A stretch of DNA of 64,000 nucleotides from Chloroflexota bacterium (GTDB lineage Bacteria; Chloroflexota; Anaerolineae; B4-G1; DUEL01): assembly GCA_014874475.1 (NCBI GenBank), contig JADBJJ010000027.1, positions 95,793 to 159,792 on the forward strand. The letters run 5' to 3'. This document shows positions 2,991-21,606 of this stretch, piece by piece. The position numbers were made by a program, and so were the translations under genes. The first letter of the stretch is position 1. Each line of letters opens with the position of its first letter. The notes beneath the pieces are model-generated. The model ran no database searches and had not been told where the DNA came from. It saw only the letters and a program-made list of their open reading frames with translations.

Positions 2991-3377
2991 CAACTGATAT
3001 TACTGATATTAAGGACAACTGCCGCCACTTCAACCCCCGAGCTTCTTTTTGCCATTGTTTTGCGCCATCGTCAGCTTGATGCGCCGTGGTGTCTCCAGTT
3101 CCTTACAATGGTGGCACAAAGGGCAAGTCGTCCTCTTGGCCGCATGTTACGATGAGCGGGGGTTCCTCGTTGGGGTCGTGCCAGGGTGGTCAGCGAGAAG
3201 CCACACTGCGTGAGTGGCCCAGTTCGGCAGAGGTGCTTGAGCAATATGGCGCGACAGTAGCGAGACTGACCTGTTCGGTCGCTGGATAACGCCGCGCTGC
3301 GCGCCGTCGGCTTCGCCCGCTGCGACGCTGGGAGGAAACGCTGGCGGTGCATGTTGAGGAAAGGTCGGTGCCCATTG

Positions 3378-3700
3378 CTACGACCCGACCGTGATCAAAT
3401 CCTTGATCCCTGCAAACGTCGTCGGGCCGATGCTGGGCACGTCCGGAATCTCATCAATGGCTCCGAATGGCCCGTTGGCCTCGCGGTACGCTACGATGCG
3501 CTGTGCCGTTATCGGCCCGATGCGCGGGGGTGTCTCCAACTCCGCTGCGGTGATAGTATTGATGTTGACCTTGACTCCTGTTGTCTCCCTAAGTATTAAC
3601 TCCGCCGCTTGCCCCCAGTGATGGCGGACTGGCTTTCTCCCGACGCGGCCTGTAGACCTGCTGCGGATCCCGCACCTCCCGTGCTTTCACTTTCGTGCTT
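3378..3700 (-). pseudogene. comEA: ComEA-family helix-hairpin-helix DNA-binding protein, C-terminal fragment only, 5'-truncated by IS insertion.
   Basis: The minus-strand translation reads …GVKVNINTITAAELETPPRIGPITAQRIVAYREANGPFGAIDEIPDVPSIGPTTFAGIKDLITVGS*, a classic ComEA HhH domain. The reading frame runs straight into the IS end at 3701, and there is no Met in the remaining frame. Confidence 0.6.
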
Positions 3701-4582
3701 GTGATTGTTCCAAAAATTGGCATAGAGTTTGAATTTCAAATATTTCCCCATTTACTGCTCTTTCTTATGCGGCCATCAGTTCCACCAGGGAAATCTTCCC
3801 TCTCCTCAACCCTCCGAATAGGCTGCTTACATTACAACACCGACTCCGCGCTTCTACCCGGCACACCGGGTGCTTCAACCCCAATGCATCGGCCACCTTC
3901 TTGAACCCATCCGCATCATCGGTGACCATCACCTCCGCCTGAACCATCTCGGCGACCTCCCGCAACCACTCCTCCAGCGTCTCTGCCGTCTCGTCTTTCA
4001 GAACCCGGATGCTGATGATGACCCTCTTCTGATCATCCACCGCCACCCCGACCGAATCCATTCCCCCCGGCACTTCACGCTGGTGACATCCCCACCGATG
4101 ACGTTCACCCGCCCTCCTTTCTCCAACCACTGGCGACGCAAGCGCTGGGCTCTCTTCCCTGCCGCCTGTATATTCCGATAAACGGTGGTCTTGCCTAATC
4201 CGATGGGCTTCTTCAGGGTACTCCCCAGCAATGCCAGAAAGAGGGCTACGGCGCCGTAACTGAGTTCCAACAAGTACAGAATCCCACTCACCGCTCGTAG
4301 GGCATCCGAATGATGCGCCCGGGAGACACCCGCTGGGTAGGCCCGAAACGTCCGCCGACAACGGAGACAGCGATAGCGCATCGCCTCCACTTCCTCATAC
4401 TCCAGGTCTCGGAGGGGTTTGGGGCACACTTGGAGCGCCTTGAAAAAGCCCCCACCGCAAAAAGGACAACGGGTCGGGGGAGCGGGGCTGGTGTTCACGA
4501 CCGGAATCCGTAGATTGTAAGTCCTCAATGTTCTCACCTCCCACAGAATCTCCCCCTATTTTACCATACCCGGAACAATCAC
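3701..4582 (-). mobile_element. IS1-family insertion sequence (~882 bp) with imperfect terminal inverted repeats (GTGATTGTTCC at both ends).
   Basis: The ends are 3701 gtgattgttccaa and 4572-4582 ggaacaatcac (reverse complement). The internal InsA-like (Zn-finger plus HTH) and InsB-like (DDE) coding regions are present. A related end fragment occurs at 45385-45559. Confidence 0.65.
3765..4537 (-). pseudogene. IS1-family transposase (InsAB'-like) split into two overlapping frames by a frameshift at a G6 run.
   Basis: ORF 3998-4537 carries CPFC…CLRC zinc-finger and HTH motifs plus '…NVIGG'. ORF 3765-4361 continues 'MDSVGVAVDDQ…VTDDADGF', which parallels IS1 InsB 'EMDEQWGYVG…MTDGWPLY'. The frame change maps to the C6/G6 homopolymer at 4063-4068. 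Confidence 0.6.
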
Positions 4583-4666
4583 AAAGAACGCGAGGGCTTG
4601 CCCTGCAGGGGTTTTTATGCTAAAATTAAATCGGTTCGTCCCCCTGCGCTGGCCCCGGAGGAGAGA

Positions 4667-6364
4667 ATGGCGGGTAAAAAAACCCTTCCTGGCCAGTTCC
4701 GCCAGAAAATCCAGTGGTGGTACTGGCGCCATGCCGATGAATGGCCCATTTCGGCTCTCAAGCGATATATCAAAGCTCTCTTTATCCTGTTGTTATGGAC
4801 TCTGACAGCCATTGGGCTCTTCCGCCTCCTGATGTTCCTGCTTCCTGATACTCTCCGCATCCCACTGACAGGCAGAGAGACGGGCGAAGCCTCTAAAGAA
4901 TCCGTTGCCCTCCTGGGCTCCCTCCTTGCTGCCCTGATCGGTTTCGCCCTTCAGCAGTGGAAGGGTCAGGAAGAGGAAGAACGGCGACATCAGGAGGAGG
5001 AAAACAGCGCCATATCCCTGATTGAGGAGAGGCTTTGTGACTCTCGCGGAGATTTATCAGAGATTGCACGCCACTATCTGGACTTCCGAAAGAAAGGAGG
5101 TGTTTGGCAGAGTAACAGAGTCCGGGCGAGGAGAGAAGAGATTTGGGAAAAGTTAGCACCTCCAGAACTCCGATGCGCCATAGCTGTGATGGAAAACCTG
5201 CCGGAAATAAAGGATTTTGATTGGTCGGAACAAGTGGATGCTCTCCACTGGGCCTCTAATTATCTGGATGAAGATTGGCAATCCCGGGCGGTTAACGCCC
5301 TGCTTGATCTGCAGTGGACGGAGAAAGCATGGCGTACGATTCTGTATATGTGGCCTGAGGTATCTCTGGGCAAAGCCCTCTTCATCCCGGACCAACGGAC
5401 CGTTCAGGGCCTTCATTTTTTGAAGTTGAAGGTCAACCCGTTCGGTTCGGAAAGGGCGGAAGCAGATGCCGATCTGCTGAAGGCCCGGGTTATCCCTTCG
5501 TGGTGGGAAAAATTGGCATCCCTCTCTGATGGGCTTTTCTTCACTGCGCCTGGAGGCGGCAGGACTGCCGCTGCGCTTCTCCTGGCCTACGACGTTCTGG
5601 ATAAGAGAACTGCATTTCCCGTCTACTGCCGGATAACGACAGCCCAGTTAGGCCTGGCTGACCTGGCTCGGTGGACAGCACAGGCGATAGCCCGATACAT
5701 CGCGCTTTCCCCTCTCGCTTTCACAAAATGCTCCTACGACGCCAGGCGGGCGATCAAACGGCTCCTTTTCGGCTATATGCCGGCAAACCCCCTGTTGTAT
5801 CTTCAGGAGGCAGGGCTGCCGCTCATAGGAGAGGGCGGAAAGGTGCTGGAGGAGTTCAGGACCCCTCTCGCCGATTCATCCAGGCCAGCCTTCTCTCAGA
5901 CCGATCCTCTCGCCTTGTTGGGCGAAGCCCGCCCAGCGGATTTCCCCCGCACTCTGATTCTGGCAGATGTCCAGGGAGTCGTAGATACCGAAAATGTTGT
6001 CCTCTCTTTTTATGGCTTACACAAAGCACTGGAGCAGGTCGGGGTTACCCTTCAGGTCTTTCTGGCTGCGTCCCCTGCTACAAACCTGCAGAGATACGGA
6101 GAGTTGCTGGAATGGTCGGAGGAAGACCTCCGGGCTTTGCTTCGGAACCGGCTGATCTTCCTTTCCCCCGATGACTCTCTGGATGCCTGGTGCGACATGC
6201 GGGTATGGGAAGAGGATTCAGTGGAGGAGCGGCTTATAAAAGCAGCGGAACGCAACCCGCGCAGGTTGATTCAAAAAGGCAACGCTCTACTTCAGCGCAT
6301 TGGCGAGACAAGGCGCCGGCTGAGACCCGAAGATGTGGATGAAGTGCTGGGCCAGAATCTCTGA
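4667..6364 (+). CDS. Membrane-anchored protein (N-terminal TM helix) with a degenerate P-loop. It is a paralog of the next two NTPases.
   Basis: GGAGGAGA lies before ATG 4667. There is a TM segment (ALFILLLWTLTAIGLFRLLMFLL). The motif 'TAPGGGRTAAAL' corresponds to APAGGGKTAL in the paralog, with K->R in Walker A. 'TLILADVQG' is Walker-B-like. The stop overlaps the next start (TGATG). Confidence 0.55.
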   Translation: MAGKKTLPGQFRQKIQWWYWRHADEWPISALKRYIKALFILLLWTLTAIGLFRLLMFLLPDTLRIPLTGRETGEASKESVALLGSLLAALIGFALQQWKGQEEEERRHQEEENSAISLIEERLCDSRGDLSEIARHYLDFRKKGGVWQSNRVRARREEIWEKLAPPELRCAIAVMENLPEIKDFDWSEQVDALHWASNYLDEDWQSRAVNALLDLQWTEKAWRTILYMWPEVSLGKALFIPDQRTVQGLHFLKLKVNPFGSERAEADADLLKARVIPSWWEKLASLSDGLFFTAPGGGRTAAALLLAYDVLDKRTAFPVYCRITTAQLGLADLARWTAQAIARYIALSPLAFTKCSYDARRAIKRLLFGYMPANPLLYLQEAGLPLIGEGGKVLEEFRTPLADSSRPAFSQTDPLALLGEARPADFPRTLILADVQGVVDTENVVLSFYGLHKALEQVGVTLQVFLAASPATNLQRYGELLEWSEEDLRALLRNRLIFLSPDDSLDAWCDMRVWEEDSVEERLIKAAERNPRRLIQKGNALLQRIGETRRRLRPEDVDEVLGQNL

Positions 6365-7791
6365 TGAGCACAGAACTGCTTGAGTCCGAATCTCCCCCAA
6401 AGCGGTCTGCCGGTTCAGGGGCCAACCCTCCTGGCCCAGTGGCCTTTCGGTTCCTTCGGGCCGAGGAGGAGCCCTGGCTTTCGGCCTGTTTTGTACCTCC
6501 ACCGGAATTCAGCCGCATGGCCGAGTCTCGCTCCTGCGTCATTTTTGGCGAGCCGGGGAGCGGCAAAACGGCCATTTGTCGGGAATTACAGGCGCGCAAT
6601 ACTCGCCCGGATGGTAGGCCCGTGCGCCTGATGACCCCCTGGAGACCTTCTCCGCCCCCGCTGGAGGTCCGCCCCGACCTGGCATGGGTCAGACGACTGG
6701 TGGAAGGGCTACTGGACGCCTGCGCTGCGGCGCTGGTCCAATACCTCTGCCGGTTTCCAGAGGATTACACCCGTGCTCCTACCTGGGCCCAGGACCGCCT
6801 GATCTGGTTCATCCACCGATACACCCTCGGTCAGCCGGAAGTCCGATGGGGGCCGTGGGCAGAAGGCTCCTATCCCGGCGCCCCTCTGATCCGGCGGATT
6901 CTGAGCGCGCCCGTCCCCGTCATTCTGTATGATGATGCCTCTCCGGAGATGGTAATGGCGGAATTGCTCAGCGGATTGGGGGGACTGGGTTTAGAGGGTC
7001 TCTGGGTGATAGCCGACGGCCTGGAAGGGTGGGCCAACGTGGCCTCGGAACATCTGACGGAGAGCCTGAAATCATTTCTTTCCACCCTCTCTTTGTTTGG
7101 CCAATACAGCCCGGTGTACAAGTTGTTCTTGCCAGATGAAATGGAGCCAGCCATCAGCCGCGCCGAGGGGCTGAGCCGACGGCGGATAGAGGGGGTCCGG
7201 ATCCGGTGGGATGCTCCTGCCCTGAAAAGTCTGTTGGAACGGCGCCTGGCTTTTGCGTTCGGGCGGGAGACATTCCCCTTAGAGCAACTCTGTAACGCCC
7301 CTGGGCTACCCGGATGGCTGGAGAAAGTGGGGGGAACATCGCCCAGAGAATGGCTGGACCAGGTGGCATTGCTGGCAGAGTATTACGCGATGCAACCTCA
7401 AAGTGCGCCTATTGACGAGGAAACGTGGAAAACACTGCGGCGGGAACACCCTCTGCGCGTTTACTTGGACGAGGAGAAGCGACAGGTAAGGATTGGAGGC
7501 CGTCTGATAAATCTGGAGGACTTACCAGCAAAAACCTATGAAATGCTCCGCTACCTGTATCGCCACAGTGGCCGGGTGGTCACTAAAGCCGAATTGTACT
7601 TCCGGGCGTATCTCGGCAAGGACCGGGTTCCTCGCCAGGGGGATAATGATTACGAGTGGCCTACCCGATATGCAGGCCTGATAGACACAAACCTCTGGCG
7701 TCTGCGACAAGCGATAGAGCCGGACCCCGACGATCCGGTCCTCCTGATCACTCGCCGGGGGCATGGCGTCATTCTTCAAGTTCGGTGGTGA
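6364..7791 (+). CDS. P-loop NTPase fused to a C-terminal OmpR/PhoB-type winged-helix DNA-binding domain.
   Basis: Walker A is GEPGSGKT and Walker B is LWVIADGLEG. The C-terminus ('TYEMLRYLYRHSGRVVTKAELYFRAYLG…NLWRLRQAIEPD…LLITRRGHGVILQV') matches the trans_reg_C fold. It is translationally coupled to the upstream gene. Confidence 0.6.
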   Translation: MSTELLESESPPKRSAGSGANPPGPVAFRFLRAEEEPWLSACFVPPPEFSRMAESRSCVIFGEPGSGKTAICRELQARNTRPDGRPVRLMTPWRPSPPPLEVRPDLAWVRRLVEGLLDACAAALVQYLCRFPEDYTRAPTWAQDRLIWFIHRYTLGQPEVRWGPWAEGSYPGAPLIRRILSAPVPVILYDDASPEMVMAELLSGLGGLGLEGLWVIADGLEGWANVASEHLTESLKSFLSTLSLFGQYSPVYKLFLPDEMEPAISRAEGLSRRRIEGVRIRWDAPALKSLLERRLAFAFGRETFPLEQLCNAPGLPGWLEKVGGTSPREWLDQVALLAEYYAMQPQSAPIDEETWKTLRREHPLRVYLDEEKRQVRIGGRLINLEDLPAKTYEMLRYLYRHSGRVVTKAELYFRAYLGKDRVPRQGDNDYEWPTRYAGLIDTNLWRLRQAIEPDPDDPVLLITRRGHGVILQVRW

Positions 7792-7896
7792 GAAATGGGT
7801 AAGGTAACTGCAAGCCATCTTAGAGAGATTTGCAATCTCAGCAAGCCATAGTTGTGCCATAATATATCTACACTCTCATAAGGAAGGGGTGAGAAT

Positions 7897-7986
7897 ATGC
7901 CATTTTTCCTATCCGGCGCCTTCCTACCTGGCCCGGCGCAAACCGTGTGCCCACTTCTTCACCCTCCCGCTTCCCTCTTCCCGTAA
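7897..7986 (+). CDS. Small ORF (29 aa, MPFFLSGAFLPGPAQTVCPLLHPPASLFP) with a strong SD, translationally coupled to the following NTPase gene.
   Basis: AAGGAAGGGG sits 7 nt upstream of ATG 7897. Stop TAA (7984-7986) overlaps ATG 7986 of the downstream gene as TAATG. The downstream gene has no SD of its own. Confidence 0.35.
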   Translation: MPFFLSGAFLPGPAQTVCPLLHPPASLFP

Positions 7987-9179
7987 TGGCTTCTCCAGAT
8001 AGCCCTATCGCTCAGATGCCAGGTGCGCCGGAGGTGACCGCATGGCTGAGTTGGGCCGGGTTTCGGTTTGACCCCTTCGGGCCCCTGGATGCTGCCGCAG
8101 ATCCCCACCTCAGCGAATATCTGGTCGGTCACCATATCTTTGCGCGCGTCTGGGGAGACGACTTATCCTGGGTTTTCGCTCCGGCAGGCGGCGGTAAAAC
8201 GGCTTTGCGCATCAGTGTGATGCAGGCCTGCTGGGTCGGACAGGAAACCAATCGCCCATTTCCCATCCCCTATGTACCTCCTTTCCTTTCCTGGGGACAC
8301 GCGCATCCCTCGGAGGAAGAACACCTCGCGGCCCTGGCTCGTGCAGGCGCAATAGCGCTCTTCCTGGCTCTGGCCTACCGTGTCCACTGGTTTCTCCGCT
8401 TGGATAAGTCGGAGCGCCGGCGCGTTGCTGAAGTGCTCCGCTGGAATCTTCCCGGTCCCCTTCCAACCTATCTGGAGCGATGCCGTTCGATCCCCAGTCC
8501 TCAAACTCTGTCGGAGGTTCTGGACCCCGCTTTTATCCTCCGAAGCCCACCAACCCCTGCCGATCTATTGAGGTGGTGCGACGCTCTGGAAGCGGCTTGT
8601 GGGGATGAGGCACCGCCTCCCCTCCGCGAGCGGTGGATGCGACTGAAGGAACTCTTGCGGGATATGGGTTTCCCGAGCATCTACATTTTGCTGGACGGGC
8701 TGGATGGCACGCCCGAAACCATCGCCAATCCGTCAGCTATAGCCCTTTGTATGGAGCCTTTGCTACGATGGGCGGAGAAGTGGGCAGAGGAGCGGGTATT
8801 TCTGAAGGCGTTCCTTCCTGCGGAAACGCAGGCCTTGATGGAGGACCGCTTCCGGGACGTGTTTGCTCCCGCGCGGGTATCCGTCATTCACTGGACGCCA
8901 GACCTGCTGGCGGAGGTCGTTCGCCGACGAGTCTACGTGGCGACCGAGGGCGCCTTTGGTAGCTTAGATGCACTGGCATCCCCGGCCCTGCGGGATATAG
9001 AGACCTTGCTGGCCAAGACGGTCTATCCCCTTCCCCGCGAAATGCTGGTGATCACTCGCCGGGTGATAGAAGAGCACCTCCGGCATGGCGGAAATGGCCT
9101 TTTAGCAGAAGCGGATGTAAAGGCCGCCATCCAGTGGTACCAGACGACATCCATCTATTTCTCTTTTACCCCCGCATGA
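7947..9179 (+). CDS. P-loop NTPase, paralog of 6364-7791 but lacking the winged helix.
   Basis: Walker A is APAGGGKT and Walker B is IYILLDGLDG. The C-terminal region is colinear with the upstream paralog (VSVIHWTPDLLAEVVRRR vs VRIRWDAPALKSLLERRL). The likely true start is ATG 7986, coupled to the uORF; 7947 is the GTG given in the ORF track. Confidence 0.6.
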   Translation: MPTSSPSRFPLPVMASPDSPIAQMPGAPEVTAWLSWAGFRFDPFGPLDAAADPHLSEYLVGHHIFARVWGDDLSWVFAPAGGGKTALRISVMQACWVGQETNRPFPIPYVPPFLSWGHAHPSEEEHLAALARAGAIALFLALAYRVHWFLRLDKSERRRVAEVLRWNLPGPLPTYLERCRSIPSPQTLSEVLDPAFILRSPPTPADLLRWCDALEAACGDEAPPPLRERWMRLKELLRDMGFPSIYILLDGLDGTPETIANPSAIALCMEPLLRWAEKWAEERVFLKAFLPAETQALMEDRFRDVFAPARVSVIHWTPDLLAEVVRRRVYVATEGAFGSLDALASPALRDIETLLAKTVYPLPREMLVITRRVIEEHLRHGGNGLLAEADVKAAIQWYQTTSIYFSFTPA

Positions 9180-9190
9180 GGAGGTTTCAA

Positions 9191-10315
9191 ATGGCTATTA
9201 GACTTTCTCCACCTCCGTACTCACCGGACAAGTTTGTGGATCGGGATGACGAATTAAGGCGGCTGGATGCCATTCTAGAGTCCGGTGAAACGCGCGCTGT
9301 TATTTTTAGAGGAGAGCGCGGTGTCGGGAAATCCTGGCTACCCGCTCACTGGGAATGGCAACTTCGCCGACGTAAAGACCTCCAAGTGCTGCGGCTGGAC
9401 TTGAAGGAGTACAAGGGGAAGGATCCGGGGTGGGCCATGGCACATATGATCCGTCGGGTCAGCGAGAAGATCGGACAGGCTGGAGAGGCACTGGGCGCTG
9501 GCCTGACCGAGATGTCCCGTGCGCTTCTCCAGAATGTCCGTAAGATGGAGAAAAAGATAGTCCTTATCCTGGACCACGTTTATGAATCGGATTGGGCACT
9601 GCTGGCGTTGCTGGAGGAGTACCTGGTGGCTCCCCTGATCGCGGAGCCCCGCGTGTTCATAGTCCTGACAGGGCGCGGCCGATGGTATCCATGGAGGACA
9701 CCTGACCTGAACCTTCGCGCAGAGCGGATGGTTGTGGAACCGCTTCCAAGCGAGGAGGAAACTCAACGACAATTGGAGAAGCAAGCCCCTCAGAGCCGTC
9801 AAAAGGCCAGGGAAATCCACCGTTTGACAGGAGGTAATCCTCTGGCCAATTACCTTCTCGCTGCGGAGCCTCAGCCCGCTCAGGTATCAGAATCAGTTAT
9901 TGAGAGTTTATTGGAGCCGGTCCCGGAGGAAGACCGTCAGAAAATCCGGCAATATTTGGAAGCGCTCTGTGTTCTGCGCGCTTTTGATGAAGAACGGATT
10001 CCTGAAATGATGGCGGTTTATACTGAGAACTCTTCTTACCGGGAGTGGACATATGCTCAGGCCCGGCAAGTACGAGATGAACTGATCCGCTGGGCACTGG
10101 CTCAGTGGGATACTGACCAGAAAGCGTATACGCTGGATAGAATCGTCCGGCAGTTGACAGAAACTCATCTGAAACAAAATCGGCGGGAGAAATGGGTCGC
10201 TCTCCACCAGGCGGCGGCACAGATGTATGAGCGCTGGGCGAGCGATCACCCCGCTTCAGCGCCACGCTGGGAAAAAGAGAGGCAGTATCATCTTGAACGT
10301 TTGCAAAGCCCATGA
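9191..10315 (+). CDS. STAND/NB-ARC-type (AAA_16-like) NTPase, single-domain.
   Basis: GAGGAGG lies before ATG 9191. The motifs are 'FVDRDDELRRLDAIL…RGERGVGKSWL' (Walker A), 'IVLILDHV' (Walker B) and 'TGGNPLA' (GxP motif). Confidence 0.6.
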   Translation: MAIRLSPPPYSPDKFVDRDDELRRLDAILESGETRAVIFRGERGVGKSWLPAHWEWQLRRRKDLQVLRLDLKEYKGKDPGWAMAHMIRRVSEKIGQAGEALGAGLTEMSRALLQNVRKMEKKIVLILDHVYESDWALLALLEEYLVAPLIAEPRVFIVLTGRGRWYPWRTPDLNLRAERMVVEPLPSEEETQRQLEKQAPQSRQKAREIHRLTGGNPLANYLLAAEPQPAQVSESVIESLLEPVPEEDRQKIRQYLEALCVLRAFDEERIPEMMAVYTENSSYREWTYAQARQVRDELIRWALAQWDTDQKAYTLDRIVRQLTETHLKQNRREKWVALHQAAAQMYERWASDHPASAPRWEKERQYHLERLQSP

Positions 10316-10337
10316 CCGTTTACAAGGAGGCAGAGCG

Positions 10338-13300
10338 ATGAGCCCCTTTTTTATCCACCCGGAAGAAGTATACTTGAGCCCTATCGCCACGGTGACGCTG
10401 ATTGGTCGGAAGGGTGAACTGGATGTTTTGGAAAAAGCCATTCGGGATTGCCCCAACCGGTATGTGATTTATCTCACCGGACAGGGCGGCATTGGAAAAA
10501 CTCGACTGCTTCAACATCTCCTTCAAAACCCTCCCGAAGGCTTGCCCCTTCAGGTTGCTATCCAGCCGGTGGATATGTACCACACCATTAACCATACTGT
10601 GGAAGGGCTTCTCCAGTCCATCCAGAAGGTCATCTCCCCCGACGGAAGCGGCTTTGAACGGTATCTGGAGGAACGAGAGAGATGGATGCGGATACCCAGC
10701 GAAGAAAGTAAGCGGTGGCAAGAGCAACGGGAACGGATGATCGGGGCTTTTATCCAGGATTGGAACGCATTGGCGCAGAAAATCCGCATCCTAATCGGCC
10801 TGGATACGGTGGAGCGGCTGTTCCTCCAGGATGACCCTGTGGCTCACGAGTTGGGTCTTCCCCTTAGCACTCCCCTGGTCTACAACTGGCTTCTGAAAGA
10901 TTTCCTCCCCCACCTTCAAAATACGGTGGTCGTTCTGGCCGGCCGCCCTATTCCTATGCCTGTAGTAGAAGAACTCAAAAAAATCGGGGAGCTTATTCAA
11001 GTCTCGCTCTCAGGTTTTACGGAGGAGGAAACTTTAGAATACTTTCAAGCGCTCATCCCGCATCTCCAGGGGAGTTCTGAACCGCGAGACCGCATGGCCG
11101 CCGAGGTATTGTCCCGATGGAACGATGATCTCCGCCGGATGTTTTTCTACGGCCTGCGGGACGACGGCACGGTACGCCCGATCTTCCTTGCCCTGGTCAT
11201 AGACTACCTGACAGTCACTGGGCGGCCCTTTCCGGTAGGACGATCCCTGGTGGAAGTTAAGAGTCTCTCCGAGGAAGATCGGGAGAGGCTTCAAGAGGAG
11301 TTGTTGAAAGGGGTAGAGGAGGAAATTCGCAACGCACTCCATCCAACCGAAGAGATCGTGAGAGTCCTGAGTTGGTTGCACCGGGGGGCCGATGAAAATC
11401 TTTTAGGCCAAATCACCGGTATTGGCGAAGAAACGCTGAAAGAGGCATGTGAGCGGGTTCGCCGCCTCTCCTTTGTGAAAATCCGCCCTGCCGACCAGCG
11501 CCTCTTCCTGCACGATGAAATGTATGCCCTCCTCCGCAGTTTACACGGTGTCATCCCTGAGAGAGCGTTCAAACCCGTCCGGGAATATTATGGAGCGCTC
11601 ATTGATCAGATCAAGAAAAGCATCTGGAGTCTATATGAGGCTCAACCTTATCTTTCCCCTTCAGAGCAAGTTGCCCTGGAAACAACCCGCCTCCGGGAAG
11701 CGATAACGGAGGACCTCCATTACAAATTGCACCGGAGTTTTGACAAAGGGTTTGATCAGTATTTCATCTACGCCGAAGAAGCACTGGCTATGGGTGACGA
11801 GACACTGGATGTGGAGTTGCGAGCGGAATTGGTGGAATTTCTGAGGGAGCAAAACGCCTCCCCTCCAGCCGATGTCCGGGCCGACGCGGCCGTCCGGTGG
11901 GTCAAACGACAGATCAGTGCCGGAAATCTCAACGAAGCGCTATCACTGATCCAGAAAATACGCGAAGAAGCCCGGCATCTGGTTGAACCCGGCGGCCTTC
12001 TTACCCAGGCCGAGTTGGATATTGCCGAGGCCACAGTCTATCTTTACCAGGGAAATCTTGATAAGGCCGAACAACGGTTGTCCGAAGCCCAGCAAAATCT
12101 GGAGCGCTTTCAGGTCTCTCCAGAAACCCCCGTCCGTTTCAATGCTGTGATGGGTCGGTTGTATAATCACTGGGGGTATCTACGGAGGGTACAGGGGCAA
12201 TTTGGTGCTGCAGAGGAGAAGTATCGTAAGGCTCTCCCTTACTGGCGCGCTGCCAGCATGGAGGCTGAGCAAGCCAACACGTTAACCAATCTGGCTTTCG
12301 TGCTGGCATTACGGGGTCGGTTTGACGCCGCTCGCCGTCAGGCGCAGGATGCTTTAAAACTGCGCGGGCAACTGGGGATGACTGGCGCCGTTGCCTTTAC
12401 GCTAAACACTCTGGCCCAGATAGAGATTTATGCCGGGCAGTACCGGGACGCTGAAGATTGGGCCCGTCGGGCCCTGGCTGTGGCCCAGGGTGCCGGATTC
12501 CGTCGTGGCGAGGGACTGGCCCATCTCTCTCTGGCCAGCATTTACCGATATATGAGCGAGCCGCCTTGCCCGGCTGCAAATCGGCGAGAGTGGCTGGAGA
12601 AATCTCTGGAACACAGTTCCAGGGCGCGGGAAATCTTCTCCAAAGAAATCTCAGAGCCAGAGCGGCTCGGTACGGCCTATTACGAGGATGCCATTGCCCA
12701 CCAGGAATTCTGTCGCCCTCCCTTGATAGAAGGCATTGACGTTAAGAGGCACGCCGATCAATCTGAAAAATCGTTTCAGCAGGCAATGAAGATTGCAGAA
12801 GAATGTAGGTTATGGCCCCTTTATTTGGATGCGGGAATGGGTCTGGCTTGGCTTTACTATTATACCGAGGAGAAAGAGAAACTGGCTTCCCACCTGGAAT
12901 CTCTGGAGACATTTCTCCAGGAGCAGTTTGCTTCACTCCAGATTACTCCAACTGCCTCTCCATCAATTGGAGAAGATACAATTCTTGATGTTTTCTCTCA
13001 GAGGGCCCGATGGCACGTTTTAAGGGGAGTGCAGGCACTGGATGGCTTTGACTCGGCCCGTGAGAGCCGGCAAGCGCCGCCGTATCCTTCATTGAGGCGA
13101 GCCGCCCGGGAATTTGCTTTGGCCCTGGAATATGACACCCTGGTGGCGGACAACTTCCGGGACCTTCGTCGAGCCCTTAATCTCATCTATGAGCGGTTGA
13201 AAGTGCTGAACACGGCTGAGTTGAGGGCCTTCTATGAGACCATCACGGAAATGGCTGATGAATTCCCCTGGAAGCCCCGCGAGGAATGGCGTTTGTGGAA

Positions 13301-13355
13301 AGAACTCGTGGATCACTTCGGCCCTTATGATGAACTGCGTCCGCCGGCCTTATGA
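10338..13355 (+). CDS. Large STAND NTPase: N-terminal NB-ARC-like ATPase plus central TPR repeats and a C-terminal domain of unknown function.
   Basis: AAGGAGG lies before ATG 10338. The Walker A is 'LIGRKGELDVLEKAI…YLTGQGGIGKTRLL'. TPR-like repeats fall at roughly residues 600-760 (…ANTLTNLAFVLALRGRFDAARRQAQDALKLR…). Confidence 0.65.
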   Translation: MSPFFIHPEEVYLSPIATVTLIGRKGELDVLEKAIRDCPNRYVIYLTGQGGIGKTRLLQHLLQNPPEGLPLQVAIQPVDMYHTINHTVEGLLQSIQKVISPDGSGFERYLEERERWMRIPSEESKRWQEQRERMIGAFIQDWNALAQKIRILIGLDTVERLFLQDDPVAHELGLPLSTPLVYNWLLKDFLPHLQNTVVVLAGRPIPMPVVEELKKIGELIQVSLSGFTEEETLEYFQALIPHLQGSSEPRDRMAAEVLSRWNDDLRRMFFYGLRDDGTVRPIFLALVIDYLTVTGRPFPVGRSLVEVKSLSEEDRERLQEELLKGVEEEIRNALHPTEEIVRVLSWLHRGADENLLGQITGIGEETLKEACERVRRLSFVKIRPADQRLFLHDEMYALLRSLHGVIPERAFKPVREYYGALIDQIKKSIWSLYEAQPYLSPSEQVALETTRLREAITEDLHYKLHRSFDKGFDQYFIYAEEALAMGDETLDVELRAELVEFLREQNASPPADVRADAAVRWVKRQISAGNLNEALSLIQKIREEARHLVEPGGLLTQAELDIAEATVYLYQGNLDKAEQRLSEAQQNLERFQVSPETPVRFNAVMGRLYNHWGYLRRVQGQFGAAEEKYRKALPYWRAASMEAEQANTLTNLAFVLALRGRFDAARRQAQDALKLRGQLGMTGAVAFTLNTLAQIEIYAGQYRDAEDWARRALAVAQGAGFRRGEGLAHLSLASIYRYMSEPPCPAANRREWLEKSLEHSSRAREIFSKEISEPERLGTAYYEDAIAHQEFCRPPLIEGIDVKRHADQSEKSFQQAMKIAEECRLWPLYLDAGMGLAWLYYYTEEKEKLASHLESLETFLQEQFASLQITPTASPSIGEDTILDVFSQRARWHVLRGVQALDGFDSARESRQAPPYPSLRRAAREFALALEYDTLVADNFRDLRRALNLIYERLKVLNTAELRAFYETITEMADEFPWKPREEWRLWKELVDHFGPYDELRPPAL

Positions 13356-13356
13356 G

Positions 13357-13785
13357 GTGAGGCGATATCGGCTTCAGGATCAGAATGCTCTCCATTCTGC
13401 GATCAACGCCGTCTGCGCCGAGGGGATGATGCGCACCCCCCGCTTTGAGCCCACCCCGGCCTGGGAGCACGCGCTGGCGTGCCCGGATTGCCCCTGCCAC
13501 CTCCTGTTGGTAGCGGAAGAGAGGCCGCATATCGCAGGCTGGTGTCGCCTTTTCCCAACCGACGAGGGTACACTGGAGTTGGGTATCGGGGTGGTGGCCC
13601 CATACCGCCACCGGGGGATTGGCCGCGCACTGCTGGCAAACGCGCTGGACTGGGCCTCGGCTCGGAGGATGCCGGTGGTGCTGGAAACCCGAACCGATAA
13701 CATCCCGGCCGTTCGCCTGTTCACTCGCTTCGGCTTCCACGTGGTCGGGCAGGCGGACGGACACTGGCAAATGCGATATCCGTAA
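13357..13785 (+). CDS. GNAT-family N-acetyltransferase.
   Basis: GTG 13357 lies 2 nt after the stop of the upstream gene. The motif 'YRHRGIGRALLANALDWA…LETRTDNIPAVRLFTRFGF' is the acetyl-CoA-binding motif A/B. Confidence 0.6.
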   Translation: MRRYRLQDQNALHSAINAVCAEGMMRTPRFEPTPAWEHALACPDCPCHLLLVAEERPHIAGWCRLFPTDEGTLELGIGVVAPYRHRGIGRALLANALDWASARRMPVVLETRTDNIPAVRLFTRFGFHVVGQADGHWQMRYP

Positions 13786-13828
13786 CCCCTCTGCGACCTG
13801 CGACTTGCGACCGGTGAGGAGGCAACCC

Positions 13829-15352
13829 GTGGCGACGAACAAGATGGACTTTCCCCAAATTTTCTGGGATTCCAGCCGCGAACGGGCGGAACTAGAACCG
13901 GTTACCGAAACCGACTGCGCCTGCGCGCCCGCTGGGCCCTCTGATCCGCAATCTGCCATCTCCCATCCGCCATCCGCAGGCCTCTGGGGACTTCCCCCCT
14001 CCCTCTATCGCGCCCCCCTCCCCAACGGCCACCAACTGGCTTTCAACCCCGTCGGCCCCGCCGGTGTGGTGGTGCTGAACGGCCCGGCGGCCCATCTCCT
14101 GGCTTCCTTCGCCACCCCAGCCCCTCTGGCCGACCACACCGCCCGCCAACTGGCCGCTCTGGGCCTGCTCACCCCGACCCACGCAATGGAATACGCAAAG
14201 CGCTACACGCCTCACGTCCTCACTCTCTGGCTCCACCTCACCACCCGCTGCAACCTCCGTTGCGCCTACTGCTACGCCCCCCGGGGCGACGCCGATATGC
14301 CCCCAGAGATTGGGCGGGCAGCAGTGGACGGGGCCATCCGTTCCGCGCAGGCCCACGGTTTCCAGGCCCTGAAACTCAAGTACGCCGGCGGTGAGCCTCT
14401 CTTCAATCTCCCCACCCTCCGCGCCGTCCACGAGTGGGCGCGGGCGCGCGCGGCGCAGGCCGGCCTGGAACTCCGGGAGGTGATTCTCACCAACGGGACC
14501 ACCCTCACCCTTGCTCTGCTGGCCTGGCTCCGAGATGAAGGGGTCCGGCTCTCCGTCTCTCTGGACGGCCTGGGTCCGGCCCACGACGGGCAACGGGTGG
14601 CGGCCAGCGGCGACGACTCCTTTGCTGCTACCGCCAGGGGGTTGGAGCGGGCGCTGGCCCTGGGCCTTACCCCTCATCTATCCATTACCGTCACCGCGCA
14701 CAATGTGGACAGGCTGGCAGAGGTGGTGACCTTCGCCCTGGACCGGAACCTCCCCTTCAACCTGAACTTCGTCCGCCCGACCCCCGGTCATCTCAACCTG
14801 GCCCCGGCGCCGGAACGTCTCATCGCCGGCCTGCAGGCCGCCCTCTCTGAGATAGAGCGCCGTCTGCAATCCGCAACCTCTACTCTGCCATCCGCTATCT
14901 GCCATCTGCTGGACCGCTGCGACTTCAGCCTCCCCCACCACTACCCCTGCGGCGCTGGACACGCCTATATCGTGGTGGGTCCGCAGGGAGAACTGGCCCC
15001 CTGCCATATGAAGATGGAGCGCACGGTGGGCACCATTTGGGAGGAAGACCCACTGGCGGCGGTGCAAGGGGAGGACGGGTTCCACAACCCGCCAGTGGAG
15101 GAGAAAGAAGACTGCCGGGAATGCCTCTGGCGCTACGTCTGCGCGGGCGGATGCCCCTTAATGGCCCAACGGCATCGGGGCACCCCCGCCGCTCCATCCC
15201 CCTACTGCGCCGTCTATCAAGCCATCCTCCCCGAACTTCTGCGGCTGGAGGGGTTGCGGTTACTACGCGATAGACCACAAGCCCCAGCCCCTGAACCGCG
15301 GTCAGTTATCAGCGAAGACCCTCGTTCCTCCGGGAGACCGGCGGCCCAGTAG
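13829..15352 (+). CDS. Radical SAM enzyme with a C-terminal SPASM domain and an N-terminal PqqD-like RRE. This is a RiPP/peptide-modifying type.
   Basis: GAGGAGG lies 7 nt before GTG 13829. The radical SAM core is CNLRCAYC (CxxxCxxC). The C-terminal Cys cluster (CGAGH…CHM…CRECLWRYVCAGGCP) is the SPASM domain. The N-terminal ~110 aa contains 'LAFNPVGPAGVVVLNGPAAHLLASF', which is RRE-like. Confidence 0.7.
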   Translation: MATNKMDFPQIFWDSSRERAELEPVTETDCACAPAGPSDPQSAISHPPSAGLWGLPPSLYRAPLPNGHQLAFNPVGPAGVVVLNGPAAHLLASFATPAPLADHTARQLAALGLLTPTHAMEYAKRYTPHVLTLWLHLTTRCNLRCAYCYAPRGDADMPPEIGRAAVDGAIRSAQAHGFQALKLKYAGGEPLFNLPTLRAVHEWARARAAQAGLELREVILTNGTTLTLALLAWLRDEGVRLSVSLDGLGPAHDGQRVAASGDDSFAATARGLERALALGLTPHLSITVTAHNVDRLAEVVTFALDRNLPFNLNFVRPTPGHLNLAPAPERLIAGLQAALSEIERRLQSATSTLPSAICHLLDRCDFSLPHHYPCGAGHAYIVVGPQGELAPCHMKMERTVGTIWEEDPLAAVQGEDGFHNPPVEEKEDCRECLWRYVCAGGCPLMAQRHRGTPAAPSPYCAVYQAILPELLRLEGLRLLRDRPQAPAPEPRSVISEDPRSSGRPAAQ

Positions 15353-15534
15353 AAGGAGATGGTTCTCTGAGGGGCATCATCTTCCCACCGGATGGGACTG
15401 CGGAGCGATCAAATCGGTGCTGGAGGACAGCGCTCTGAAGGGGAGGGGGCACTCTTCGGCAGAAACGCGGCCGGGACGGTGCGGGCATTTCTCCAGCGAT
15501 CGGGCGCCCAGGGATAGAAAGCCCCACCCCGCCT

Positions 15535-16590
15535 CTACCGGCAATAAATTGGACTGCTGAAAATCCAGCCGCGCGTCCGTCCCCGGAACGTCCGCCAGAC
15601 TTCCACCCGATACGTGCCCGGCTCCGCTGTGGTGAACCGAAGGGTCCGGCCATAGGTACGGGCCACCACCCGGCCCTCCCGTAGGAGACGGATCGCCCCT
15701 GGCCGGGAGACCTCCACCTCAAAGACCAGAGCACCGGCGCGGGGGATTTCTTCCCCCATCGTCGCCACGGCTGGCCCGCTGCGGACATGGAAGCGGAAGC
15801 CGCGCGTGGCTCCGATCCGGTCGTACCCCACCCATGTGCGCCCCGCCCGCAGCGCGTCGTAAATCAGCCGCCGATCCGTCTCCAGGTCGCCGGTCAGGGG
15901 TTGCTCCACCAGGACGTGGGTGTTGACCCAGCGCAAGAGCGTATCGTAGGGGAAAACGACCCGCCGGATAGGCCCCAGACGGTAGGTATGGCCGTGGGCA
16001 TCCGCTCCGCCGATGGCTGCCACCTTCCGACCGGCCCGCAGGAGCGCATCCCACTGGCGCAGGGTGGCGCGAAATGGCCCCCGAATCCCCAGTTCCGGGA
16101 ACAGCGCGTAGAACAGCGCGGCCAGTCGCCCCCACAGCAACCCCTTGAACTCCGACATTGCGTTCCAGATTTCCAGCCCCGTGTACCCATCTACCTCCCA
16201 GTCCACCCAGGGAATGGGCTCCAGGTCGGGGCTGATGGGGCTGCCCTTTTCGTAAGGGTGGGCCAGAAAACAAATGCCGCCTCGCTCATTGACTTCGTGG
16301 ATTAACCGCTGAGGGTCGGCGGCGAGGGGGGCCAACTCCGCTTCCGCCCCGTAGATGAGGAGATGGTTGACTTGGGGGTATCGGCGCACAGAGTGAACTT
16401 CCTCCCCCACCAGGAGAAGGACGCCGTCGGTGTATCCCTCCACCCCGTGCACCCAGATGTTGTGGTCGGTGACCACAACGAAATCCAGACCGGCCCGGGC
16501 CGCCGCCCGGGCGACCCCTCGGTGGTCTGCTACCCCGTCGGAGTACACGGTGTGGATGTGCAGGTTGCCAACGACCTCGTAGTAGCGCAT
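15535..16590 (-). CDS. PHP-domain metal-dependent phosphoesterase.
   Basis: 'GNLHIHTVYSDG…VVVTDHN' is the PHP motif. Confidence 0.65.
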   Translation of the reverse strand: MRYYEVVGNLHIHTVYSDGVADHRGVARAAARAGLDFVVVTDHNIWVHGVEGYTDGVLLLVGEEVHSVRRYPQVNHLLIYGAEAELAPLAADPQRLIHEVNERGGICFLAHPYEKGSPISPDLEPIPWVDWEVDGYTGLEIWNAMSEFKGLLWGRLAALFYALFPELGIRGPFRATLRQWDALLRAGRKVAAIGGADAHGHTYRLGPIRRVVFPYDTLLRWVNTHVLVEQPLTGDLETDRRLIYDALRAGRTWVGYDRIGATRGFRFHVRSGPAVATMGEEIPRAGALVFEVEVSRPGAIRLLREGRVVARTYGRTLRFTTAEPGTYRVEVWRTFRGRTRGWIFSSPIYCR

Positions 16591-16624
16591 TTCGGGGCAA
16601 TCATACCCGATGGCCGGGGCATTG

Positions 16625-17359
16625 TCAAGTCGCCTGCACTCCCTCCTGCCATTTCAGCATCCAGCGGGCAAAATCGGCCAGTTCCCCCTGCCCGTCGGGG
16701 GGCGGCTCGCTGGCCGGGTGAGGGGCCTTTCGGTCGGCAATCCAGAATGTCCGCATCCCGACCTGGCGGGCAGGGCGGATGTCCATCTCCCAATCGTCCC
16801 CCACCATCATGCACTCCTCCGGCGTCCGGCCCAACCCCTCGGCGACTTCCGCGAAAAAGGCCAGGTGGGGTTTGGAGGCGTGCATCACCTCGTAGGACGT
16901 GATGAGGTGGTACGGGAACTCCTCCACCGGCACGCCTGCCCAGGCCAGCCGCTGGTCTATCGCCGTACGGGGGAAGAGAGGATTGGTGGCAATAGCGACC
17001 TGGAATCCCTGTCGGAAGAGCCACTCCATCAGCGGCCGCGCAACGCGCACCGGACGGGTGAGCGCGCGCAGCGTGGGGAAGTGGGTGGCGTAGAACTCCT
17101 CAAACAGCGGCTCCATCTCCTCCCGCGTCCGGCCGATGGCTGGAAAGAACGCGGCATCAAAGACGTCCCGGTTGGTCCGCTCCGACCCGTTGTTGGCCAT
17201 CATCGCGTCCGTCGCGCGCATCAGATGACGGATAAACGCGTCCGGCGGATAGTGGTCGGCGATGAACCGGCCCAGAAGCCCCAGATAGGCCGGGATGAAC
17301 TGTTCCATGTCGTTCTCCAGTAGGGTGTTATCCAGATCCAGAAGTACAGCGCGAATCAC
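16625..17359 (-). CDS. HAD-superfamily hydrolase.
   Basis: The N-terminal 'LLDLDNTL' (DxDxT) and a C-terminal 'VGDDWEMD' are present. Confidence 0.65.
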   Translation of the reverse strand: MIRAVLLDLDNTLLENDMEQFIPAYLGLLGRFIADHYPPDAFIRHLMRATDAMMANNGSERTNRDVFDAAFFPAIGRTREEMEPLFEEFYATHFPTLRALTRPVRVARPLMEWLFRQGFQVAIATNPLFPRTAIDQRLAWAGVPVEEFPYHLITSYEVMHASKPHLAFFAEVAEGLGRTPEECMMVGDDWEMDIRPARQVGMRTFWIADRKAPHPASEPPPDGQGELADFARWMLKWQEGVQAT

Positions 17360-17417
17360 GGCTCCTCCTTGTGCTGGTACATCGGCAAACGGGGCAGAGG
17401 GTCATTCGGCCATTGAG

Positions 17418-18116
17418 TCATTCGGTCATTTCTTCCGCGCGACGTTCTCCGATGATGCGCCCGTCTCGCATCAGCAGAATCCGGTCGGTGCGGCGGGCCA
17501 CCGATGGGTCGTGGGTGACGATGATGATGGTAGTCTCCAGGTCCCGGTTCAACTCCCGCATCAAGCCCACCACCTCCGCCCCACTCTGAGAGTCCAAATT
17601 CCCGGTGGGTTCGTCGGCCAGGAGCAGGGCGGGACGGTTCGCCAGAGCGCGGGCGATCGCCACCCGCTGCCGCTCCCCGCCCGACATCTGGTTGGGCAGG
17701 TGGTTCATCCGGTCGCGCAAGCCCACCCGCTCCAGCAACTCCTCCGCCCGCCGTCGGCGCTCCCGGCGGCCCACGGGCTGGCCCATCATCGGCACTTCCA
17801 CATTCTCCCGCGCCGTCAGTGTGGGAATCAGGTTGTGCAACTGGAAGACGAAGCCCACCGTCCGGGCGCGAAAGGTATCCAGGTCCCGAATCTGGAGCAG
17901 ATTCTGCCCGTCCACCCAAACCTCCCCACCGGTAGGCCGGTCCAGCGCGCCGAGGATGTGGAGCAGGGTGGACTTCCCGGAGCCAGAGGGCCCCATCACA
18001 GCGACGAACTCGCCCCTGGCCACCGTCATTGTCAGCCGGTCCAGTGCCCGGACCTCCGCGCCGTCTCCGTAGACCTTCACCAGGTCCCGTGCGACAACGA
18101 TCGCATCCCTCTCCAT
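17418..18116 (-). CDS. ABC transporter ATP-binding protein (MacB/LolD/FtsE type).
   Basis: Walker A is GPSGSGKST. The signature LSGGERQR and Walker B LLLADEPT are present. GAGGGGG lies before the ATG. Confidence 0.75.
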   Translation of the reverse strand: MERDAIVVARDLVKVYGDGAEVRALDRLTMTVARGEFVAVMGPSGSGKSTLLHILGALDRPTGGEVWVDGQNLLQIRDLDTFRARTVGFVFQLHNLIPTLTARENVEVPMMGQPVGRRERRRRAEELLERVGLRDRMNHLPNQMSGGERQRVAIARALANRPALLLADEPTGNLDSQSGAEVVGLMRELNRDLETTIIIVTHDPSVARRTDRILLMRDGRIIGERRAEEMTE

Positions 18117-18139
18117 GGCCCCCTCACGTTTGTCACATT

Positions 18140-19246: not shown

Positions 19247-19338
19247 CACCGACCTCCAAAATTCACGAATTCACGTTCCACTTTTCACGCTTCACCCTCA
19301 CCCCACGCCCCCGCTTCCATCCCCAGTCGCATCTTCTC

Positions 19339-21573: not shown

Positions 21574-21606
21574 ATTGCGTACTCCGTACTCCGTGTCCCG
21601 TGCCCT

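Follow-up and report, generated by a model that had tools for sequence, protein, structure and literature searches.

Origin recognition complexes (ORC) and the clamp loader RFC are hetero-oligomers of AAA+ paralogues that include inactive subunits, and the repeated loss of the ATP site in one paralogue is typical of the scaffold subunits of such machines; AAA+ oligomers as a class are arranged head to tail. Among bacterial regulators, those of the OmpR/PhoB family recognise direct repeats of ~7 bp that recur every 11 bp upstream of a -10 box, as in the pho box. DS-41 (the 'AAA2' of DefensePredictor) is a single-gene anti-phage system of E. coli that has been validated experimentally (PMC13092281). 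Here we analysed three consecutive genes, c1, c2 and c3, of a Chloroflexota bacterium, found within a 64-kb stretch of contig JADBJJ010000027.1 (hereafter the window, to which all coordinates refer unless another locus is named). The initial annotation, made from the sequence alone, had described them as a tandem triplication of an uncharacterised P-loop NTPase that could form a membrane-to-DNA signalling device. Sequence comparison indicates that c1-c3 are the front half of an undescribed, phylum-wide AAA+/STAND/radical-SAM cluster that carries a candidate operator.

All three genes lie on the forward strand. The first, c1 (4667-6364), encodes 565 residues, is identical to database protein P0121 and has the Walker A and Walker B motifs TAPGGGRT and LILADVQG; c2 (6364-7791) encodes 475 residues with GEPGSGKT and WVIADGLEG. 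The c3 open reading frame (ORF) runs from 7947 to 9179, its likely start being ATG 7986 (397 residues) or ATG 8016 (387 residues, P0001), and the product (7986-9179) is a bare AAA+ core, as first described, with APAGGGKT, YILLDGLDG and a fully conserved ATP site. Pairwise BLASTP between the three products gave E values of 0.012, 0.059 and 0.018 that were confined to the surroundings of Walker A, which left their homology undecided, and we therefore compared the orthologue families by profile-profile alignment with hhalign. This proved decisive: c2 against c3 gave a probability of 99.4 and E 1.6e-21 over 330 columns, c1 against c3 99.3 and 6e-21 over 322 columns, and c1 against c2 99.4 and 1.9e-21 over 303 columns. 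From N- to C-terminus, the aligned stretch contains an NPF..AE.D..L motif, Walker A, Walker B, a K-containing strand, W....L..hh.RR and a P-R lid helix; the colinear motifs reported at the outset are found at their positions. As a control, the same profiles were aligned to those of g4 and g5, the two STAND-like ATPases encoded downstream, and returned E values of only 6e-6 to 0.12 over merely 25-64 columns. This control stays at the level of the P-loop, and the relationship between c1, c2 and c3 extends well beyond it. Cross-family hidden Markov model scores were also significant at a database size of 1.8e9, with best E values of 1e-12 to 5e-18.

The identity between c1, c2 and c3 is ~18-20% and each copy has an orthologue family of its own, ranging from Anaerolineae to Roseiflexus and Chloroflexaceae; a recent, local triplication is therefore not supported, and the profile data identify the three as ancient paralogues of one uncharacterised AAA+ family. 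Since c2 and c3 score against the NCBIfam Sll1717 and DS-41 models about as high as against each other, they may be old members of a wider superfamily rather than mutual closest relatives. Direct comparison of g4 and g5 (probability 98.9, E 1e-17, 319 columns) indicates that these are paralogues too, and by these alignments the cluster holds two paralogue sets, three c-type and two STAND-type ATPases. In public data we found 239 orthologue matches for c3, 95 for c2 and 17 for c1, all from Chloroflexota metagenome-assembled genomes (MAGs) and all annotated as hypothetical, with no Pfam domain on the c1 and c3 orthologues. The c3-related family is small: when 1.84e9 representative proteins were scanned in full by HMMER with the c3 profile, 1977 clusters passed E <= 1e-3, of which 336 passed E <= 1e-30.

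A search of the PDB sequences with the c3 profile returned no match at E <= 1, so the clade had to be sought by fold comparison. In fold, the c1 and c3 models are closest to ORC/Cdc6-type AAA+ ATPases and have a P-loop alpha/beta core followed by a helical lid. Below the top matches ranked the archaeal ATPase_2 protein 2qen (13.0), then BrxC, TnsC and MuB (~12), and plant NLRs and MalT (~10-11), a ranking that places c1-c3 nearer ORC/Cdc6 than STAND. Of the clades that had been considered at the outset (KAP, AAA_16, ORC or another), the family thus falls on the ORC/Cdc6-initiator/STAND side of AAA+; KAP proteins (PF07693) carry transmembrane (TM) helices inside the NTPase domain, and c1-c3 do not belong to them. 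By sequence, the paralogues reach no curated ATPase family. Against the ORC-CDC6-like family PF24389, c2 scores 19.6 bits (cut-off 27) and c1 and c3 give no match; some c2 orthologues bear a precomputed PF24389 match. Scores against NCBIfam NF047389, the Sll1717 family P-loop ATPase with a cut-off of 75, are 63.3 bits for c2, 40.6 for c3 and 16.5 for c1, and against the DS-41 anti-phage model NF053860, with a cut-off of 370, they are 79.4 bits for c3, 48 for c2 and 16.4 for c1.

In the c2 and c3 families, Walker A is an invariant GxGK[ST] (72/72 c2 and 81/81 c3 sequences), and the Walker B aspartate is followed by Gly, with an acidic residue at +3 (D-G-L-D/E); the corresponding residues of c1 are D-V-Q. 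In c3, a helical insertion of ~125 residues separates strand 2 from the Walker B strand. From the sequence only, candidates for sensor 1, the arginine finger and sensor 2 are an invariant Lys on strand 4 (K264 in c3, K253 in c2), an Arg of the first lid helix that is likewise invariant (R305 in c3, R294 in c2, R495 in c1) and the P-R motif that starts a lid helix, whose Arg is found in 80/81 c3 sequences (R341), 72/72 of c2 (R328) and 8/16 of c1 (R532).

The three genes had been treated as a unit of their own, and they are in fact part of a conserved cluster of 5-7 genes that includes the two STAND-like ATPases and a radical SAM/SPASM enzyme. We fetched 54 genomic loci encoding c3 relatives (numbered with the prefix L) and scored their ORFs with profiles; the counts given here refer to loci with enough flanking sequence. 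The gene order is fixed, c1-c2-c3-g4-g5-(GNAT)-radical SAM/SPASM, across loci that span Anaerolineae, Thermoflexales, Caldilinea, Ardenticatenaceae, Roseiflexus and Chloroflexaceae MAGs, those closest to the window's cluster being Anaerolineae and Thermoflexales MAGs. Beside c3 we found c2 in 47/47 loci, g5 in 31/31, g4 in 41/42 (the exception resembles a g4-g5 fusion) and c1 in 32/39, while the radical SAM gene accompanies c3, following g5, in 22/22; the GNAT gene is present in a minority of loci. As a sign of co-expression, the c1 stop and the c2 start share one base in the window (TGATG), and overlaps of a few nucleotides between these genes are seen again in the ORF coordinates of related loci. 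A gap of 224 nt separates c2 from the c3 ATG at 8016, and g4 starts 12 nt past the c3 stop. Literature searches on Sll1717, on ORC-CDC6-like/PF24389 and on Chloroflexi radical SAM together with STAND proteins found no description of this cluster.

The back half of the cluster is likewise encoded on the forward strand. The g4 gene (9191-10315), preceded by a GGAGG Shine-Dalgarno sequence, encodes a STAND-like ATPase with ATPase_2/AAA_16 and DUF7779 matches, and g5 (10338-13355, with an alternative start at ATG 10227) encodes a second one in which AAA_16 is followed by a C-terminal TPR array (TPR_12, MalT-type TPR). A GNAT acetyltransferase (13234-13785; Pfam Acetyltransf_1, E 9e-17; start uncertain), an optional member elsewhere, precedes the radical SAM/SPASM enzyme, which resembles peptide maturases and carries the Pfam Radical_SAM domain. 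The limits given for the latter, 13619-15352, are those of the ORF, and the true start is probably later; as it stands, the window's protein has a long N-terminal extension. Its scores against NCBIfam models are 145.6 bits for a nif11-type maturase, 121.9 for PapB and 121.1 for QhpD, all below cut-offs. Variants of the cluster were also encountered: an extra g4 copy lies between c1 and c2 in L044 and L048, an extra g5 copy is present in L027 and L033, and the apparent g4-g5 fusion is that of L016.

The c1 protein begins with a TM hairpin and continues through a helical juxtamembrane domain (~residues 125-226) into an AAA+ core that is ORC/Cdc6-like and has a degenerate ATP site. The hairpin (4766-4960, residues ~34-98: YIKALFILLLWTLTAIGLFRLLMFLLP ... 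KESVALLGSLLAALIGFALQQW) coincides with the maxima of the Kyte-Doolittle profile in a 19-residue window, at residues 34-60 (2.18) and 77-98 (1.69), and with two long helices of the model, 27-58 and 74-124, which bears out the membrane anchor proposed initially. Walker A, GGGRT (residues 296-300, 5552-5566), has Arg in place of the canonical Lys, as had been noted, and this form is found in 14/16 aligned c1 relatives, the other 2/16 having GKT. In the clade to which the window's c1 belongs, GGGRT is accompanied by loss of the conserved strand-4 Lys (K->Q), while GKT is kept in several c1 lineages, including L001 (666 residues, E 1e-72 against the c1 profile). The P-loop of c1 is wholly erased in Roseiflexus and several Anaerolineales loci, the loci without it including L021, L027, L032, L033, L035 and L036, and the Walker B Asp is also erased in L027, L032, L033, L035, L036 and one Roseiflexus locus (L024). 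These alignments indicate that the ATP site of c1 has been lost repeatedly and independently, whereas those of c2 and c3 are invariant. c1 also diverges fastest of the three paralogues, the identity to the window's proteins in one related contig being 61% for c1, 73% for c2 and 85% for c3. Because repeated site loss in one paralogue resembles the scaffold subunits of ORC and RFC, the data support a non-catalytic role for c1; the suggestion that c1 is a pseudo-enzyme holds to that extent and falls short of proof. In Roseiflexus (L022 5846-8221, L024, L026 and L052), the c1 proteins are ~790-810 residues long with no recognisable P-loop, and carry ~150-190 residues between two predicted TM helices, possibly an extracytoplasmic sensor domain.

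In c2, the AAA+ core (~residues 20-354) is followed by a C-terminal winged helix (~residues 366-472, 7459-7779). This domain scores 31.1 bits against Trans_reg_C (PF00486; gathering cut-off 26.2) and therefore belongs to the OmpR/PhoB winged helices, as initially proposed; when the c2 family profile was compared with the PDB, it matched RegX3 (E 1.7e-12), WalR (8e-10) and PhoB (2e-7). A candidate pho-box-like operator is found immediately next to it. Phased direct repeats with an 11-bp period (7786-7816) begin at the c2 stop codon, the first unit, GTGAG 7788-7792, overlapping the stop and being followed by GTAAG 7799-7803 and GCAAG 7810-7814. Searching with the regular expression GT[GA]AG-N6-GT[GAC]AG gave a single match in the whole window, at 7788, and 71 matches in the 1.59 Mb made up of the window and the related loci, all of them associated with the cluster or located before accessory genes. 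Within 109 nt after the c2 stop lie 44/71 of these matches, a 454-fold enrichment contributed by 33/52 loci; the other 27/71 are found deeper in the c2-c3 gap, on the opposite strand upstream of c1 or c2, or just past the radical SAM stop.

A third unit of the repeats at +22 is enriched even though the expression did not demand one, and the variants co-vary within a genome: in L032, for example, GTGAGATTTTTGTGAGA is found at each of the two sites, and L044 and L048 have TGTCAG variants at each. In the window, an extended -10-like box, TGcCATAAT (7855-7863), is read from the sequence and assigned to a putative internal promoter that would drive the genes from c3 to radical SAM; most related loci have a similar box, [CT]ATAAT or TACAAT, behind their repeats. 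Of the outer copies that were checked, 15/20 lie 114-499 nt upstream of, and co-oriented with, a gene for an NYN-domain protein or a ~207-residue protein, with a -10-like box in between, and 5/20 have no assignable target. Since direct repeats with an 11-bp period before a -10 box are the site architecture of OmpR/PhoB proteins, c2 is the obvious candidate for the protein that binds them.

The two accessory families emerged from an all-against-all clustering of ORFs of at least 30 residues in the 54 loci, which identified only these as optional members and no conserved precursor peptide, protease or exporter; other neighbours and flanking genes are not conserved between lineages. The NYN-domain protein, a predicted RNase of ~500 residues, is encoded in L001 (4649-6193, minus strand), L017 (4521-6002, minus), L021 (17996-19573, plus), L031 (12056-13660, plus) and L036 (13181-14650, plus). 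The ~207-residue protein, with an N-terminal TM helix, is found in L006 (17267-17812, plus), L032 (5216-5839, minus), L027 (5021-5677, minus) and others, and L031, L036 and L006 have a small hydrophobic ORF between the repeat motif and the accessory gene. Past its TM helix, the ~207-residue protein of L032, L027 and L006 contains 'NP..SQAEAER', which resembles the NPF..AE.D segment that precedes Walker A in c1-c3 and may be either coincidence or a mimic of that segment. Both accessory genes are absent from the window.

In light of these data, we propose that the Chloroflexota-specific operon, comprising c1-c2, the operator and promoter, and c3-g4-g5-(GNAT)-radical SAM/SPASM, encodes an ATP-driven, probably hetero-oligomeric, membrane-to-DNA switch, a reading to which we assign a probability of about 50%. 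In this scheme c1, c2 and c3 would be subunits of one nucleotide-dependent switch. The membrane-tethered c1, largely or wholly non-catalytic, would report the state of the membrane or envelope, c3 would be the catalytically intact core partner, and c2 would be the output subunit, with oligomerisation of its AAA+ module bringing the OmpR-type winged helices together head-to-tail. Because AAA+ oligomers are head-to-tail, the winged helices of c2 would stand in tandem, fitting direct rather than inverted repeats. By binding the GTGAG repeats, which are phased at 11 bp and begin at the stop codon of its gene, c2 would control the internal promoter of the genes from c3 to radical SAM; elsewhere it would also control the adjacent NYN-nuclease or small membrane-protein gene. 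A second input probably comes from g4 and g5, with the TPR array of g5 as sensor. The data show the paralogy, the fold, the synteny, the decay of motifs in c1, the winged helix and the repeat array specific to the cluster; we infer that the three proteins form hetero-oligomers and that c2 binds the repeats, as well as the direction in which regulation runs and the physiological role. A membrane-to-DNA device was thus a reasonable first reading of c1-c3, and the conserved candidate operator beside c2 strengthens it. A more ambitious version, in which c1, c2, c3, g4 and g5 all join in one membrane-tethered ORC-/RFC-like hetero-oligomer on the GTGAG repeats, a Chloroflexota-specific 'AAA+ relay' that replaces a phospho-relay and switches on the radical SAM/GNAT module together with nuclease or membrane effectors, appears improbable to us.

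Several observations weigh against the proposed switch. c1 is missing from 7/39 loci (Chloroflexaceae, L028, L002 and others), and the membrane subunit is therefore dispensable in some lineages. The classical Walker B Glu is absent from all three paralogues; in c2 and c3 its position is occupied by Gly, and even these 'active' copies may be slow switches or may hydrolyse ATP with a non-standard residue. The window has no recognisable repeat array upstream of c1, where a transposase remnant is found, and the P-value of the repeat enrichment overstates independence, because the loci are related by descent. Finally, the contacts among c1, c2 and c3 belong to the proposed part of the scheme, as does c2 binding, and the repeats could serve another DNA-binding protein.

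In a different explanation, c1, c2 and c3 are separate homo-oligomers with separate tasks that are merely co-expressed, and the repeats are bound by another factor or mark the ends of a mobile element. In L017, L021 and L028 the repeats to the left of the cluster are inverted and those to its right direct, an arrangement expected of terminal repeats, and the flanking genes differ between lineages. However, repeats are also present inside the cluster in nearly every locus, the orientation of 15/20 outer copies toward an accessory gene with a -10-like box in between suits promoters better, and no transposase or recombinase is conserved with the cluster; for these reasons we judged mobile-element ends to be unlikely. 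Hetero-oligomeric AAA+ assemblies such as ORC and RFC usually show just the signature seen here: strict gene order, stop codons that overlap the next start, and an ATP site that decays in a single paralogue. Separate homo-oligomers seem very improbable to us. In another explanation, the ATPases are regulators specific to one pathway, in which the radical SAM/SPASM enzyme and the GNAT protein would make a RiPP-like (ribosomally synthesised and post-translationally modified) peptide or modify proteins; the parallels would be AfsR/SARP or the STAND-TPR proteins known from the radical SAM systems Fxs and Haa. The radical SAM gene follows g5 in all 22 loci and is adjacent even where it is inverted (Roseiflexus), its best named matches are the peptide maturases nif11-type, PapB, QhpD and SCIFF, and the putative internal promoter and candidate operator lie upstream of this module. 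The TPR region of g5 weakly matches the RiPP TPR protein HaaT (E 3.7e-9), AfsR (6.5e-8) and NsdA (5.7e-11). Yet the maturase matches are far under the family cut-offs, the gaps between g5 and the radical SAM gene are often < 50 nt, the ORF clustering gave no precursor peptide, protease or exporter around the clusters, GNAT is optional, and five ATPases would be an unusually heavy regulatory load for a two-enzyme pathway; we would give this explanation little credence.

An anti-phage or abortive-infection system deserves somewhat more attention, even if we also consider it unlikely. Here g5, with g4, would sense the invader, the AAA+ paralogues would relay or amplify the signal, and effectors (an NYN RNase, small membrane proteins or a radical SAM product) would be induced; the molecular mechanism could be the same as the one we propose, with a defence role assigned to it. 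The best named matches of c3 and c2 are indeed DS41_1_antiphage (79.4 and 48 bits) and the Sll1717-family ATPase, but all are far under cut-off (79 vs 370; 63 vs 75). In PADLOC-DB v2, c1, c3 and g4 had no match, c2 had short P-loop matches only (E 0.002-0.09), g5 matched through its TPR only, and the radical SAM gene showed generic pVip-level similarity, with no system assigned. As an ATPase with TPR, g5 resembles Avs-type sensors. None of the five ATPases is fused to a classical effector domain, and while the accessory genes behind the repeat motif encode an NYN-domain nuclease or small TM proteins, the window has neither. Flanking genes vary between lineages and mobile-element genes adjoin the cluster in the window and in L003; on the other hand, the core order is fixed across several Chloroflexota classes, the identity (87% to 25%) roughly tracks taxonomy, unlike that of patchy defence islands, and the window's neighbours are ordinary metabolic and transport genes. 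The membrane-to-DNA switch remains our preferred reading; as its physiological role, both a defence or stress response and control of a radical-SAM product are compatible with the evidence.

Other elements of the region were also inspected. A promoter-like site, TTGCCC-17-TAAAAT with a TG (4598-4626, plus strand), lies ~40 nt upstream of the c1 start; it is a weak candidate that comes from a consensus scan, and the promoter/terminator scan of the region gave nothing above shuffles. A search of 3000-17000 against Rfam found no RNA family at E <= 0.1. Between the operator and c3, a small upstream ORF (uORF), MPFFLSGAFLPGPAQTVCPLLHPPASLFP (7897-7986, plus strand), follows a strong Shine-Dalgarno sequence, AAGGAAGGGG, and its stop overlaps the in-frame c3 ATG (TAATG). 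Short ORFs that begin in the same way, with MPF[FL]L or MPFLI, are found again in L005-L008 and L041; L004 has lost the start codon. From its sequence, the uORF may be a leader peptide or a translational-coupling device, or it may be non-coding. We rejected it (MPFFL...) as a substrate of the radical SAM enzyme: only the first residues recur, the length ranges from 9 to 29 residues, and L004 has no ATG.

Upstream of c1, at 3765-4537 on the minus strand, two overlapping ORFs with a zinc-finger-like CxxC and a DDE-like tail, and with no Pfam match, have the look of a disrupted transposase. A transposase-like insertion may have displaced the ancestral region upstream of c1, which elsewhere holds a repeat array and an accessory gene. 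Downstream, HlyD-type adaptor and MacB/FtsX-type permease genes on the opposite strand (18140-21573, minus) are followed by a TrmB regulator and a bacterial serpin (22603-23886, plus), and in the other loci none of these is conserved beside the cluster; the genes that surround it in the window have ordinary metabolic and transport functions. The GC content rises to 0.65-0.68 at ~14-22 kb (14001-22000), against 0.54-0.58 across the ATPase genes and 0.47 in the initial 2 kb, so that the window is compositionally heterogeneous.

If the proposed switch is correct, a whole phylum would carry an undescribed regulatory machine in which an ORC/Cdc6-like ATPase module stands in for the receiver domain before an OmpR-type DNA-binding domain, and in which paralogous subunits have specialised as membrane anchor, DNA binder and catalytic core. 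It would also give ORC and clamp loaders, with their 'active plus dead paralogue' logic, a natural counterpart in bacteria, one in which the decay of the c1 ATP site can be traced stepwise across lineages. The cluster-specific candidate operator offers a direct experimental handle, and the distant link to DS-41, a validated and mechanistically unexplained defence ATPase, could illuminate both systems.

Compared with known systems, the Sll1717 (NF047389) and DS-41 (NF053860) families are the sole named sequence families matched by all three paralogues. The matches are colinear: the N-terminal motif and Walker A fall on the beginning of the model, and the C-terminal half falls on model positions ~200-375. 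These alignments suggest that c1-c3, the Sll1717 family and DS-41 probably share one AAA+ superfamily. DS-41 differs in being one gene of ~1.5 kb that encodes ~500 residues, whereas the locus described here has three specialised paralogues, with TM and winged-helix additions, in a 5-7 gene operon. The regulators of the OmpR/PhoB class provide the likeness of the output domain, in that the C-terminal domain of c2 passes the Trans_reg_C threshold and matches the structures of PhoB, RegX3 and WalR, and the candidate operator resembles the pho box in that its short direct repeats recur every 11 bp and precede a -10 box. Unlike in these regulators, there is neither a receiver domain nor a histidine kinase, and an AAA+ module takes the place of the phospho-switch. 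STAND regulators such as MalT and those of the AfsR/SARP type likewise join a nucleotide-switch ATPase, a TPR-type sensor and a DNA-binding domain, and the TPR regions of AfsR, NsdA and MalT are weakly matched by g5. In the Chloroflexota cluster, however, these functions are split over several polypeptides (TM in c1, winged helix in c2, TPR in g5), the winged helix is C-terminal and there is no BTAD domain.

The comparison with archaeal Orc1/Cdc6 and eukaryotic ORC/Cdc6 is the most extensive. c2 has the same order of AAA+ base, lid and C-terminal DNA-binding winged helix, the helical insertion between strand 2 and Walker B is at the place of the initiator-specific motif, and the P-R motif that opens a lid helix resembles the sensor-2 'GDAR' of Cdc6. 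The differences are considerable: the identity is 12-18% and none of the Pfam models for Cdc6/ORC is reached, the winged helix belongs to the OmpR/PhoB type, the insertion of ~125 residues is far larger than the initiator-specific motif, and Walker B reads D-G-L-D/E rather than D-E. In addition, one subunit is membrane-anchored, and the operon, with its STAND ATPases and radical SAM enzyme, gives no hint of replication. Nevertheless, ORC has several paralogues of which one is inactive, and the co-encoded c1, c2 and c3 resemble it in this respect.

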